Below, one piece after another: positions 121 to 56,791 of a stretch of DNA of 64,000 bases. Source of the stretch: Octopus vulgaris (lineage: Eukaryota); contig OX597833.1 of assembly GCA_951406725.2 (NCBI GenBank), positions 11,036,001 to 11,100,000 of the forward strand. Direction: 5' to 3'. The position numbers were made by a program, and so were the translations under genes. Each line of letters starts with the position of its first letter. Positions within the stretch are counted from its first letter, which is position 1. The notes beneath the pieces were generated by a model, which saw only the letters and a program-made list of their open reading frames with translations, did no database searches and was not told the DNA's origin.

Positions 121-1994
121 GACCCGGTCCGGGAGCCTTGTATACCCGGTGGGGTAGAACAAAATGTCCACGTAATTCCAGTCTGGTATACGATGGTTAG
201 TATATTCTGTTTCTTATCTCTCTCTCTATTTCTTTCTCACTCTCTCTCTTTCTCTTCCTCTCTCCCTCTCCCTCCTTCTTTCTGATCTACACAAAAGTTT
301 TTCCTATTATAGTATATCACGTTTTAAACGGCGATTATAGATTCTCTTGAGATTACTCAAAACTACTCACTCCGTTGAATTTATTTGGTCATAGCCGAAG
401 TATAAATGCCGTCAAGAATGATCACACGAACAGGATATCATCGAAATTACTCCCTTGAACCCAACCACAGAATATAGTTACCTAAGGACTGTATGCATTA
501 ACTACGCACTATTCCACCACTTAATCACGCTAGTTCCTCATGGTAAGGCAATTCTGAACTTTCCACTCAGAAGACACTATTTTCCACCACTTCCCCATCA
601 ACTTTTCTTTCTTTAAACGAGATTTGTTTTTGTTTGAAATACGATGGAACAGATTTTACCTGTCTATAACCGAACCCTAAACGGTTTCCTTAAAGGTTTC
701 CCAATTCAGCCTAAACTGAACCTTACAATCCTTTCACCACTCACTTTCCTTAAAGACGTAAAATAACCCCAGTGATGCAGCAAATAAAGCCAACGGGACC
801 ATAACGTGTATCTTCACGCGACCTGTTCACGACTAGCCGAGAGTTTTAGCTACGCTGTGCAGGATGTTCTGTTAAATAACTTTTAACTACCCATCGACTG
901 TCAATACTCTGCACCTCACCGTGTTCTTCTATTTTGTATTGGTTAAAAATTCCTTGTATCGTTCTTCTATTTTATCTCCGTTAAAATTTGAACAAAATCG
1001 TCTTTTCCATTTTAGAGGAAATGCGTGACGTAACGGCCTTCCCTTCACACTCTTTTGACATCTGCACACAACCATCTACAGCCATGTATCTAGACATATT
1101 CATAAATATTACCTACACAAACACGTTGGCGTACACCTACAACATATATACATATAAATCATAGACACGTACAGTTTTTAACTCATACACAAACATTCAT
1201 TCAGCAACACAGCTTACACTCGCATCGATAGTAGTTTGTATACACATCCTACACACGTAAACATAGTGAATGTTCAAAACACACCCACACACATAGACAC
1301 ACACACACACATATAGACACACAACTTACACACACACATAAACTCAATCACACACACACACACCCGTATGTGTGTCTATTTATAATCGCCAATTTAAAAT
1401 TGAAAGTTCCTTTTCAAGGATTTCTTTTAATCCGCGTTTTTCTTATTTCACTTTACTTAACATTTTATTTATTTGATATGTTCTTACCAATTCTAGGTGT
1501 GGTTGGTGGATCACCTTTTAACGAAACAGGCGGCGGAAGTAATCTCTTATGTCTACCTAACGACCCCATTTGGGCAAATTACAATGGAGGTGTAAAACAT
1601 TGGGGTCACATATATGGCAGTGAATATGAAACATAAATTCCTATGCGAAAAAATACTTTTCTTCTGCTAACGCTGAATCAATTCATGATCACAACGTTCC
1701 GTGTGCTGTCTGTTTGACACGACAACCTGCTGTTGTTATGATGTTACCAGCCAGGACACAGTGTTACGCTGGTTGGACAGCTGATATTCGGGATATTTGA
1801 TGACCGAATATTATAAATCAAAGGGCAGACATGAATATGTGTGTGTGGATCATGCACCAGAAGCTGATCGGCAGGTTACAGAAACGAAGAATGGAGCTTT
1901 ATTATATTTTGTGAAGGGAATTTGTGGTTCATTACCATGTCCACCGTATGTCTATGGTCGCATTTTAACCTGCGTTGTGTGCAGTAAATATTGA
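121..1994 (+). pseudogene. Copy A (5' part outside window) of short-chain collagen C4-like / NC1-like domain gene; exon 3 121-195, exon 4 1497-1994, frameshifted
   Basis: cag|GACCCGG...GATG|gttagt exon 3 reads [25 protein letters not shown]. ttctag|GTGTGG exon 4 aligns to the intact copies but has indels near 1634 (giving TAA), 1785, 1870 and 1889. These may be assembly artefacts (see findings). Confidence 0.8.
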
Positions 1995-3567
1995 AGTGAA
2001 TATCGTTGAATTTGCTTCTCTATGAAAACTTATGTTAACCAATTACAAGACATAATATAATATCATAAAACAATATAGACGTTTTAAATTCTGTTTGATG
2101 ATATTTTATCGAAGTTATATAAATCGTTAAAATACTCTGTGCTACTAGTTAACAGAAAAATATTATAATGGTGAGAAAATCGGCGCCAGAGAATGTGAGA
2201 ATTATGCTTATAGAACAATGCAAAGCTGAGTGAATAATTCTAGATAAACATTGTATAAGGATCAGTTCATAAAACTAAAATGTGGAAATAAAATTGTATT
2301 TCGTTTAACTGTATTTTGTGTTCTGTCTTAAATATCAATAAATCCCACTTGAAGTAATATCATAGAAATATAAGATGGTTCCATCATTTTTGAGAGGAAT
2401 GTAAGTAGTAATCCTCTCACCACCTATTTTGTTTTTACCTGTATCTATACAACCTCTTGACCCCGGCACAAGATTATTTGACATCCTCATAACCGGAATG
2501 CGTAATCCTCACACCTTGCACCATTTCCTAAACACTGATGCACAACAATCAGGAATGGAATCACCTGGGAGTATCGAATGCGAAGAATTCTCTCACTTAA
2601 AAGCAGAAAAATGGTAAATTGGAGCAAAGATTTGCTTTACAACACTTACCACATACATAGAAAGCAGAGTAAAGACAGCAAAAGGACGTAGAAACATAAT
2701 GAGGGTAAGCAAAGTTACTCTGTGTAAACTGTGTGATATGTTGAGACTGTTACAGCACATCCAATAAGAAACATCACTATGTATTAGTGTAGAATATTCC
2801 TTAGATTAAAGAGAAGAAGAATGGATATTTGGGAGACACAACGTCTTTCATGCAAGTAATTGAGTGACATAAGCTTGCCATTAAGAAAATGCATGTATTT
2901 AGACATTTATAATAGGAATCAACTTTAAAGGTATACATGTGTGTGTGCTTAACCCAATGAACCTTTTGGAAAATTCGGACTGAGAATCGTAGCTACGTTT
3001 GAGTAGCACAGAGTGCGTTCTGTTTCAATAAATATTTCTGCGATATGATATTTTAGATGAGCACAACCGTCTATTTATTTGTTTAATACTATTAAACACT
3101 CGACGTATTTCCTTACTTATACGCGGTCAATATTTAGAGTTTCATATATTTTGAAATAATTTTATACTTTTTTATTTACTTTCTAATGTTTGACCCTGAA
3201 AAAAGACATGTTAATGCTTTTAATAATAAAGACCCATTCATTTATACAAGGCTTTGTTTCCTTACCAAAATATATCAATGATTGGAACAAAATCAAATGA
3301 CTCACAAAAGCGATCCACCACAAACCTGCAACTTTCCTCCTTCCTGGGAACATTTGGGCAAAGATAAAGAGTGCAGGGAAGAGCATGGCTATTCTACTGG
3401 GGGTGGGGCAAAATAAAGCAATCTAATAGATGATAATGTTTTCATTAAAAAAAAATTATGCTTAAATAAAAGTAATTCAATATAAATACGATAAAATTTA
3501 CAAAGAACAAAACAAAAACAAGCAATAAAAATCTGTGAACGAGATGTAAAGAGTAACCGATGGACAA

Positions 3568-55600: not shown

Positions 55601-56791
55601 GAGAGTTTTAGCTACGGTGTGCAGGATGTTCTGTTAAATAACTTTTAACTCCCTATCGACTGTCAATACTCTGCACCTCACCGTGTTCTTCTATTTTATA
55701 TTGGTTAAAAATTCCTTGCATCGTTCTTCTATTTTATCTCCGTTAAAATTTGAACAAAATCGTCTTTTTCCATTTTAGAGGAAATGCGTGACGTAACGGC
55801 CTTCCCTTCACACTCTTTTGACATCTGCACACAACCATCTACAGCCATGTATCTAGACATATTCATAAATATTACCTACACAAACACGTTGGCGTACACC
55901 TACAACATATATACATATAAATCATAGACACGTACAGTTCTTAACTCATACACAAACATTCATTCAGCAACACAGCTTACACTCGCATCGATAGTAGTTT
56001 GTATACACAAAACTACACACGTAAATATAATGAATGTTCAAACACATAGACACACACACACGCGCACACACATAGACACAAAGACACACACACACACACA
56101 CACACATACACACACATAAACTCAATCACATACACATATAGACACACACACACAAACTCGGATGTGTGTCTATTTATAATCGCAAATTTTAAAATTGAAA
56201 GTTCCTTTTCAAGGATTTCTTTTAATCCAAGTTTTTCTTATTTCACTTTACTTCATATTTTATTTATTTGATATTTTCTTACCAATTCTAGGTGTGGTTG
56301 GTGGAACAGCGCATAACGAAACAGGCGGCGGAAGTAATCTCTTATGTCTACCTAACGACCCCATTTGGGCCAATTACACTGGAGAAGTTACAAGTTGGAG
56401 TCACATATATGGCAGTGAATATGAAACACGAAATTCCTATGCGAAAAAATACTTTTCTTTTGCTAACGCTGAATCACTTTTTGATCACAATGTTCCGTGT
56501 GCTGTCTGTTTGACACGACAACCTGCTGTTGTTATGATGTTACCAGCCAGGACAAAGTGTTACGATGGTTGGACAGCTGAGTATTCAGGATATTTGATGA
56601 CCGAGTATCATAATCATAAAGGCAGACATGAATATGTGTGTGTGGACTATGCACCAGAAGCTGATCCAGCTGGTTACAGAAACGAGAATGGAGCTTTATT
56701 ATATTTTGTGAAGGGAATTTGTGGTTCATTGCCATGTCCACCGTATGTCTATAGTCGCATATTTACCTGCGTTGTGTGCAGTAAATATTGA
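49661..56791 (+). CDS. Copy E, intact short-chain collagen C4-like protein, 256 aa; exons 49661-49804, 54067-54118, 54906-54980, 56292-56791
   Basis: Canonical splice sites, 144+52+75+500 nt open frame and 10 conserved Cys. It has a single exon 2/3 module with the short intron 2. Confidence 0.9.
50769..51186 (+). mobile_element. tRNA-derived SINE (second family) in (TA)n of copy E intron 1
   Basis: Head GGCGCAGGAGTGGCTGTGTGGTAAG...GGGTTCAGTCCC, internal TA/TG tract and AAAGAGT tandem tail; homologous to 62327-62731. Confidence 0.85.

Follow-up and report, generated by a model that had tools for sequence, protein, structure and literature searches.

Conflicting ancestry in a tandem array of spongin-type NC1 genes of Octopus vulgaris suggests concerted evolution with diversifying selection on exon-4 patches

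Introduction

How do neighbouring gene copies come to share their variable segments in groupings that disagree from one part of the gene to the next? This question is raised by a 64,000-nt stretch of Octopus vulgaris contig OX597833.1 (the window), which holds five tandem genes of the 'short-chain collagen C4-like' type, here called copies A to E. Genes of this name are usually taken as structural matrix genes, and recombination among tandem paralogues is textbook knowledge. An earlier note on this DNA had described a patchwork along exon 4 and the flanks, and had ascribed it to short tracts that are exchanged between the copies and recombine variable patches combinatorially. Here, we report which parts of this proposal hold and which process best explains the array.

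Results

The encoded protein

Copies A-E encode a spongin-type NC1 domain without a collagen helix. Copy E corresponds to the O. vulgaris record P0001, with 100% identity in exons 1, 3 and 4 and in the coding part of exon 2. P0001 has 10 cysteines and lacks the HSQ motif, as a mere count with positions unaligned to the sponge sequences; for the SSCC NC1-like domain, an excerpt of PMC5395295 gives ten cysteines (seven common with collagen IV and three of its own) and no HSQ. There is no run of three or more Gly-X-Y in P0001, and just 2 of 120 homologues have one; we therefore regard the product as an SSCC-type NC1 protein and not as a collagen.

The array proteins have an NC1-like fold. All top ranks of a Foldseek search were collagen IV NC1, with moderate scores (E about 3e-5), and the structural comparison with collagen IV NC1 gave a VIA Z of 6.9 (rmsd 5.7, 157 aligned). 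A Pfam search gave no match for the domain, including none to C4, and a PDB sequence search with the protein gave 0 matches. The wide structural search was dominated by the N-terminal helix, and the single-sequence fold of exon 4 (pLDDT 32) was discarded. An ApeC identity was considered and rejected (atlas score 0.79, rank 27). In place of the Gly-X-Y helix, the protein has an N-terminal hydrophobic helix followed by a long helical stalk.

A three-copy (trimer) model scored 0.93 versus 0.49 for the best control, which lends support to binding without showing it; the model may reproduce solved NC1 trimers. By hand count, there is no clear enrichment of variable residues at the modelled interface (21 of 29 versus 80 of 136). 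The protein may be a trimer, either anchored in the membrane or shed, in which variable loops would come together where subunits join and might recognise a variable partner. One peptide of a related subfamily member appears in one of three ink samples, according to a supplement row of PMC10142993.

Rearrangements and divergence steps

Every grouping in the earlier note, whether of patches, spacers or the exon 2/3 duplication, is present (Table 1). The strongest support for exchange comes from rearrangements and divergence steps that are independent of copy A and were given no weight in the earlier note; these are better evidence than the patch swaps in which A takes part.

Table 1. Features of the array and groupings within exon 4. 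Patch sites are numbered in copy A coordinates.
Feature	Position	Strand	Remarks
Copy A, exon 3	121..195	+	5' half of A falls outside the window
Copy A, exon 4	1497..1994	+	reading frame interrupted by four indels of 1-2 bp (about 1635, 1785, 1868, 1889)
Patch 1	1516..1519	+	A=D vs B=C at 1516/1518/1519; one site synonymous
Patch 2			A+B at 1584/1594/1596; D+E at 1604
QCYA/KCYD			ABC vs DE at 1759/1769
Patch 4			A=C at 1816-1820, plus 1681 and synonymous 1790
Candidate C-like tract in A	1681..1820	+	includes patch 4; 4 A-C vs 11 A-B differences in 140 nt
Patch 5			ABE vs CD at 1883 and 1890, two single transitions; A has insertion at 1889
3' flank homogenised in five copies	1995..2974	+	ends at edge of 770-bp segment missing from A/B/E
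Copy B	5033..15337	+	exons 5033-5176, 7408-7459, 13461-13535, 14841-15337; nonsense codon near exon 4 start
Internal duplication in B	10402..12151	+	dead exon 3 (stop), 315-bp junction with a probable Gypsy-integrase-like relic (10701-11015), degenerate exon 2
Intron-2 deletion junction, second intron-2 copy of B	12688..12689	+	
Copy C	18573..30777	+	exons 18573-18716, 23424-23475, 28914-28988, 30281-30777; exon 4 open
Dead exon 3/exon 2 cassette in C	about 26258-28001	+	
Old spacer after C	31728..34337	+	includes C/D-only 770 bp (31756-32525)
Copy D	34849..44347	+	exons 34849-34992, 38593-38644, 42421-42495, 43848-44347; open
Old spacer after D	45298..49149	+	
Gypsy-like gag relic, spacer after D	46438-46620		DUF7083, E=4e-5
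Mariner transposase HTH relic, spacer after D	47675-48004	minus	HTH_48, E=7.5e-13
Copy E	49661..56791	+	exons 49661-49804, 54067-54118, 54906-54980, 56292-56791; 256 aa
Copy F	61592..61850	+	diverged (76% identity), truncated exon-4 relic without AG acceptor

The exon 2/3 duplication is found in both B and C, as had been observed, though the truncation of A at the window edge means that this grouping does not exclude A; a conflict of the duplication with the A+B grouping was rejected for this reason. The duplication (B,C) does conflict with the absence of the 770-bp segment (B,E,A). This segment is retained in C and D, and past its position E tracks A/B for another ~140 bp, so that the spacers indeed group A+B, at first with E, versus C+D. 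The intron-2 deletion junction of B's second copy is the same as in E (54256/54257) and absent from the first copies of B and C as well as from D. Part of intron 2 in D diverges by 17-19% from B/C.

The homogenised 3' flanks of A and B diverge by 1.2%, and those of the other pairs by 4.4-5.5%. Between C and D, divergence steps from 4.1% to 23.4% at a change-point at 31728 (support 31711-31730; 0 of 300 permutations), 27 bp off the indel edge. At the other side of the spacer after C, the edge lies by a (CA)n stretch upstream of the next exon 1, with 13% C/D divergence versus 1.6%. With 16-23% divergence, the similarity of the C+D spacers is old and retained, and its origin by recent exchange was rejected.

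Single-tree tests on exon 4 and flanks

Exon 4 carries a signal that does not fit a tree. The PHI test on its 25 informative sites gave p=0.0002-0.001, and a median p=0.002 with one site kept per 5-nt cluster; PHI on flank substitutions alone had no signal (p 0.5-0.96). Site counts are based on 2659 of 3026 columns, with repeat-masked and gapped columns and two microsatellite stretches taken out. The exon-4 signal remains without A (p=0.01-0.037) and is still significant without B, D or E; it is lost without C (p=0.3-0.4). The backbone ((A,B),C,(D,E)) was rejected by the AU test in no partition, the lowest value being 0.085. By PHI, the conflict of groupings within 500 bp exceeds chance, but patch 2 and QCYA/KCYD fit this backbone, and copy A takes part in each of the two clean patch swaps.

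Between A and B, 22 of 494 sites differ in the exon and 28 of 2165 in the flanks (p=3e-5). Of these, 10 of the 22 and 2 of the 28 have the A state and the B state again among C/D/E (p=0.002). Single-tree nulls with patch-specific branch lengths lead to 4.0 such both-state sites, with a probability of 0.009 for ten or more. Two 3-nt clusters occurred in 0 of 1000 runs of nulls of the same type. Mutation-selection nulls with family amino-acid preferences, run 2000 times under each of four settings, produced them in 0 runs. With 1.5x longer branches, the number of shared sites by itself is non-significant (P=0.20). The flanks have CD/CE/DE split counts (6/5/5) that none of 300 single-tree simulations reproduced under either of two topologies. 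The D+E affinity switches in the B,C,D,E quartet at ~1812 (1812..1816, A coordinates), with BC|DE at 12 of 19 sites to the left and 0 of 9 to the right; without A, the permutation p for this breakpoint is 0.009. A single tree for all informative sites, which would have spoken against the earlier note, is contradicted by exon-4 PHI and simulations. The GENECONV check it proposed, run as a Sawyer/GENECONV-type test of low power with five copies, detected no fragment that is significant at the global level (best p=0.066).

At the protein level, PHI was significant among 16 O. sinensis paralogues (p=0.005-0.017), weak inside one subfamily of 12 sequences (raw p=0.09-0.37), and without signal in six other O. 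vulgaris proteins.

Selection on the patches

The nonsynonymous excess is restricted to the patches. With shared dS, patch omega is 3.2-4.0 (p about 1e-5) versus 0.15-0.3 elsewhere; with patch-specific dS it is 1.6-2.2 and non-significant (p=0.32, 0.06). These tests are inflated by recombination, and the edges of the patch blocks were set by eye. Four-fold degenerate sites are as variable as the flanks (6 of 59 vs 197 of 2164). Synonymous divergence had at first seemed too high in the framework of the exon (pS 0.082; its test was pseudo-replicated), but this excess is gone at four-fold sites and was dropped. The entropy calculation comprised 25 of 30 proteins, with five truncated ones omitted and truncated O. 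vulgaris proteins cut to the in-frame part.

Discussion

Our preferred explanation, to which we assign a probability of roughly two thirds, is that these tandem spongin-type NC1 genes evolve in concert, through both unequal crossover and conversion, while their patches are under diversifying selection. Misaligned copies of the array would recombine, and unequal crossovers would make chimeric units such as B and C, which would join a 5' half with long intron 2 to an E-type 3' half. E itself would turn from D-like to A/B-like within exon 4, in its 3' part. Crossover or conversion, acting again and again, would hold the divergence of gene bodies and proximal flanks at about 4-5%. Homogenisation would halt where homology breaks, at the 770-bp indel edge and at the (CA)n upstream, and the spacers beyond would stay 13-23% divergent. 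Selection would change amino acids in a few exon-4 loop patches, and occasional short tracts would carry a patch between copies. What one looks for in interlocus conversion, clustered sites incompatible with one tree, emerges from PHI and the simulations; the marks of unequal crossover, namely units of chimeric make-up and homogenised stretches that end abruptly, are found as well. The mechanism of recombination, the direction of the tracts and the reality of those in A are what we infer from these patterns. As regards the original proposal, exchange between copies is supported by PHI and simulations; the rearrangement junctions and divergence steps speak for unequal crossover and homogenisation over kilobases no less than for short tracts. 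Combinatorial recombining of patches by short tracts draws mainly on two A-versus-B patches, with no significant Sawyer fragment, and is plausible but unproven.

The incompatible rearrangements and divergence steps also weigh against a single duplication tree without exchange, on which hypervariable codons under positive selection would have changed repeatedly or by convergence; this account leaves them unexplained. It could appeal to the unrejected backbone, to the high patch omega, and to two residue pairs, N/D in patch 5 and Q/K at position 179, that switch back and forth in the family and do so even within what look like orthologue pairs. The common patches, however, hold synonymous sites and an identical three-base codon change, and nulls with fast or preference-biased patches yield no two clusters; the account is already strongly disfavoured and very improbable. 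Birth-and-death with unequal crossover only, by which long chimeras form and old alleles are sorted among young duplicates without short-tract conversion, fits the long range of the A-independent evidence (rearrangements, one breakpoint, divergence steps), the lack of a significant short tract, and the near-star relation of C, D, E and the A/B ancestor with its balanced splits. If A is real, though, 350 bp of it change between D-, B- and C-like segments while the flanks on both sides are B-like, and several crossovers inside one exon would be needed; we consider crossover as the sole process unlikely.

Alternatively, the patchwork might stem from mixed reads of paralogues or alleles, and A and B might be haplotypes of one locus placed in tandem. 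Relative to B, the 494 exon bases of A contain four indels and the 2165 flank bases one (p=0.005). Three of the four lie at B-E polymorphic sites, where A seems to combine the two alleles, to have neither of them or to be of a length in between. This makes chimeric assembly of A possible, but the coincidence of indels and polymorphism is itself non-significant (p=0.10). A break-off in exon 4 occurs in 4 of 9 listed O. vulgaris proteins versus 1 of 16 in O. sinensis (p=0.04), where the truncated proteins may stem from differing gene models. The A-B flanks differ by only 1.3%; yet the A flanks are cleanly B-like, with 25 AB sites versus 2 AE. Hybrid genes from mis-assigned reads are documented for the Sp185/333 cluster in an excerpt of PMC3091723. 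As the exon-4 signal persists without A, and clean kilobase divergence steps and exact common deletion junctions are unlike consensus noise, assembly chimerism is a decidedly unlikely source of the whole pattern. For exon 4 of A alone, we give it slightly less than even odds.

The process is a known one and the family is new. With the SSCC-related proteins, as excerpted from PMC5395295, the octopus copies share the 10-cysteine NC1-like domain, the lack of HSQ, the collagen IV NC1 fold match and the database names; they differ in the missing Gly-X-Y helix, in the hydrophobic helix and stalk, and in the octopod tandem expansion with hypervariable loops, of which we found no description. The Sp185/333 (SpTransformer) genes of sea urchin are likewise clustered paralogues whose similarity is confined to the gene and proximal flanks; in the excerpted account (PMC3091723), similarity drops at a microsatellite, conversion is proposed and assembly hybrids are a known hazard. 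The Sp185/333 protein is unrelated, its diversity consists of element patterns instead of point-substituted loops, and its immune function is shown, whereas the octopus array is known from sequence and has an indel edge as its 3' boundary. In the red/green opsin 'peak of divergence', the MHC and plant R-gene clusters, again following an excerpt (PMC3924837), coding patches are also more divergent than the flanking introns and pseudogene copies are also retained in the array as possible donors, but those cases have population or functional proof and the octopus array is known from one assembly.

The C/D divergence step within 30 bp of the indel edge provides a clean natural marker of the limit of homogenisation. 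The octopus array lacks a collagen helix and has the marks of evolution that are seen in recognition proteins, with apparently selected loops, copies that are pseudogenes, and exchange. A wider reading, which we offer tentatively and at rather long odds, is that in octopods a spongin NC1 domain free of collagen became the basis of a diversified system for recognition. At least 20 tandem genes would encode trimers, anchored in the membrane or shed, with composite binding sites made up of hypervariable loops of adjacent subunits; diversity would arise by positive selection, by patch-sized conversion with broken copies such as A and B as donors, and possibly by mixed trimers. If true, the system would correspond, on a collagen IV fold, to SpTransformer, FREP or R-gene clusters, and would act at body surfaces in immunity or in self/non-self recognition. 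With the marks named above, the array is a candidate diversified receptor family of cephalopods, one that is concrete and open to test.

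Array and gene copies

Self-comparison of the window reveals five direct-repeat units of 13-16 kb each within microsatellite-rich DNA, and every unit holds a gene of four exons whose splice sites are canonical (copies A-E, Table). A protein search with exon 4 of copy D returned 219 proteins. Within the best 120 of these 219, named octopod proteins make up nearly all of the top 29 matches, most of them labelled 'short-chain collagen C4-like'. Copy E corresponds to the O. vulgaris record P0001. Copies D and E read open and copy C does so solely when a dead exon-3/exon-2 cassette is skipped; copy B has an early nonsense codon in exon 4, and copy A carries four indels. 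In the sixth, much older relic F, patch 1, one of five short variable exon-4 stretches, is similar to that of the other Octopus subfamily.

Table. Features of the array (window positions)
Feature	Location	Positions	Remarks
Exon 4	Copy A	1497-1994	
Exon 4	Copy B	14841-15337	
Exon 4	Copy C	30281-30777	
Exon 4	Copy D	43848-44347	
Exon 4	Copy E	56292-56791	
Exon-4 relic	Copy F	61592-61850	76% identity, acceptor lost, truncated
Dead exon-3/exon-2 cassette	Copy B	10402-12151	exon-3 splice dinucleotides kept, stop present
Dead exon-3/exon-2 cassette	Copy C	26258-28001	exon-3 splice dinucleotides kept, stop present
Dibasic KK motif after helical stalk	Exon 2, all copies	54067-54118 (exon 2 of E, as example)	
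Element with about 107-bp inverted arms	Intron 1	6479-7121, 11375-12034, 22511-23137, 27222-27882, 53118-53781	
Same element, D version	Intron 1	38174-38306	one arm and interior lost
Self-complementary element, about 250 bp	A spacer	3568-3817	
Self-complementary element, about 250 bp	B spacer	16912-17160	
Pyrimidine tract, 1.8 kb	D intron 2	40476-42313	(TTTC)n then (TTCC)n; much longer than in other copies
Dispersed 400-bp repeat, SINE-like	E intron 1	50777-51179	
Dispersed 400-bp repeat, SINE-like	Downstream	59492-59616, 62334-62731	inverted

Conflict with a single tree

The backbone tree of the copies is ((A,B),C,(D,E)), with a flank divergence of about 1.3% between A and B and of 3-6% for the remaining pairs. 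All groupings named in the earlier note were found in the aligned copies, while its reading of them as gene conversion or unequal crossover is supported only in part. Patch 2 and the QCYA/KCYD stretch, listed there as conflicts, merely match the backbone. The true conflicts lie elsewhere (exon-4 sites are in copy A coordinates): in patch 1, A equals D and B equals C; near 1635, a length variant of 3 nt is short in B and C, long in D and E, and intermediate in A; in patch 4, and also at 1681 and 1790, A equals C; and in patch 5, C equals D.

On 2659 clean columns, the PHI test is significant in exon 4 (p=0.0002-0.001; median 0.002 after thinning to one site per cluster) and gives no signal in the flanks (p 0.5-0.96). 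The exon-4 signal persists without A, B, D or E and is lost without C. Copies A and B differ at 22/494 exon sites and 28/2165 flank sites, and both states recur in C, D and E at 10 of the 22 and 2 of the 28, respectively. Under a null of one tree in which the patches have their own branch lengths, 4.0 recurring sites are expected (probability of at least 10: 0.009) and one 3-nt cluster appears in 0.2% of runs; two clusters, as observed, occurred in 0/1000. Mutation-selection nulls based on family amino-acid preferences produced two clusters in 0/2000 runs under each of four settings, whereas the recurring-site count alone is unremarkable with 1.5x branch lengths (P=0.20). AU tests never reject the backbone (lowest 0.085), and no fragment of a Sawyer-type scan is globally significant (best 0.066). 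In the flanks, C, D and E split 6/5/5, a pattern that was matched in 0/300 simulations under either topology and that suggests exchange or sorting of an older, scattered kind.

Reliability of copy A

Both clean patch swaps include copy A, which has four indels in exon 4 and one in the flanks (p=0.005). Three of its indels lie at positions variable among the other copies and look like two alleles blended, although this coincidence taken alone is not significant (p=0.10). Among the matches listed, 4/9 O. vulgaris proteins and 1/16 O. sinensis proteins break off in exon 4 (p=0.04). Because of these indels and broken proteins, it is a live possibility that copy A is a mixed-read consensus, or that A and B are two haplotypes; assembly hybrids of this sort are on record for Sp185/333 (PMC3091723). 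The tracts involving A may well be real.

The protein pairs P0004/P0042 and P0009/P0061 are apparent O. sinensis/O. vulgaris orthologues with K vs Q at the toggling residue 179; both O. vulgaris members end prematurely, within exon 4.

Evidence independent of copy A

In the quartet B, C, D, E, the split BC|DE is found at 12/19 sites up to 1812 and at 0/9 beyond (permutation p=0.009). Unique rearrangements clash as well: B and C have the internal duplication in common, while absence of a 770-bp spacer segment unites B with E (and A). E and B's second, duplicated copy of intron 2 also share one deletion junction exactly. In the simplest reading, B and C would be chimeras that fuse a long-intron 5' half to a 3' half of E type at a relic of 315 bp that we take to be Gypsy-like; alternatively, E may have collapsed from the duplicated form. 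Non-allelic recombination is required by both.

Divergence also changes in steps, each matched in 0/300 permutations. Between C and D it is 4.1% (39/949) in the 3' flank, then 23.4% (169/723) past 31728, 27 bp off the indel edge. A point lying just within the (CA)n that precedes the next exon 1 marks a drop from 13.0% to 1.6%. D and B also show a step within intron 2, where 8.3% gives way to 19.1%. Gene bodies are therefore far younger than spacers, homogenisation ending where homology to other copies ends. The spacer after D contains a relic of a mariner HTH, as well as text resembling Gypsy gag, presumably Gypsy, that matches DUF7083 weakly.

At the protein level, PHI gives p=0.005-0.017 in 16 O. 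sinensis paralogues. Inside a single subfamily the signal is weak, and six other O. vulgaris proteins show none of it, so the support it lends is no more than modest.

Repeats of introns and spacers

Within the segment of the intron-1 inverted-arm element, 14 sites group E with the duplicate versions in B and C. A and B diverge by 2.7% in the spacers and 1.3% in gene-proximal flanks. The pyrimidine tract of D, just upstream of exon 3, is a potential triplex-forming recombination site.

Probable selection and predicted fold

Across 25 other octopod proteins, variable residues fall at 97-100, 121-128, 137-144, 154, 179-186 and 195-203, plus a small number further on, and coincide with the patches of the earlier note. 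Four-fold sites of B-E are no more variable than flanks (6/59 vs 197/2164). With shared dS, omega is 3.2-4.0 in patches and 0.15-0.32 elsewhere (p about 1e-5); with their own dS, patches reach 1.6-2.2, which is not significant.

AlphaFold2 predicts a beta-rich domain together with a helix at the N-terminus (16-58; mean pLDDT of the model 87.7, 106-sequence alignment). Foldseek ranks collagen IV NC1 at the top throughout (E about 3e-5), with low TM-scores near 0.2 for the whole model, stalk included; the VIA structural comparison gave Z 6.9, rmsd 5.7 and 157 aligned. The domain has ten cysteines, and both HSQ and a Gly-X-Y run are absent. The KK motif of exon 2, a possible shedding site, is KR in Argonauta and in one distant O. 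sinensis homologue. The cysteine count and the lack of HSQ fit the spongin NC1 definition (PMC5395295), whereas the collagen part of spongin has no counterpart here.

A three-copy model scores 0.93 (best of 3 controls 0.49), with at least 90% contact agreement between runs and partner pLDDT of at least 86. In calibration, which used two copies, the mark was reached by 21/30 solved microbial homo-pairs and 0/23 single chains, and in eukaryotes by 17/29 (animals 7/16; 1/7 among those without an older solved relative) and 0/30 single chains. The three-copy result may reflect recall of NC1 trimers by the model. In this model patches 1, 2 and 5 share one face of the subunit, and patches 3 and 4 share the opposite one; by hand count, enrichment of variable residues at the modelled interface is not clear (21/29 vs 80/136).

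Implications

Most probably, 95%-identical units misalign, and crossover and conversion then even out gene bodies to the nearest homology break and now and then yield chimeric genes. Selection would favour novel residues in exposed loops, possibly for recognition, and short tracts may at times carry a loop from copy to copy. The data show the signal against one tree, the rearrangement junctions, the divergence steps and the excess of nonsynonymous change; the tract mechanism, the tracts of A and a role in recognition are inferred. The patch selection result is similar to two patterns described in PMC3924837, a 'peak of divergence' in converting duplicates under selection and an MHC/R-gene model with pseudogene donors.

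Among the matches listed, with most subscription papers outside coverage, literature on short-chain collagen C4, octopus spongin, molluscan short-chain collagen selection and cephalopod tandem gene conversion contained no description of this array. An octopus study (PMC10142993) gives one peptide, in 1/3 ink samples, from a member of a related subfamily, and other papers place the family among genes of the matrix, of glands or of the shell (PMC12549020, PMC6626399, PMC12040131, PMC13093298). The process is already known, and the family with its probably selected loops does not appear to have been described.
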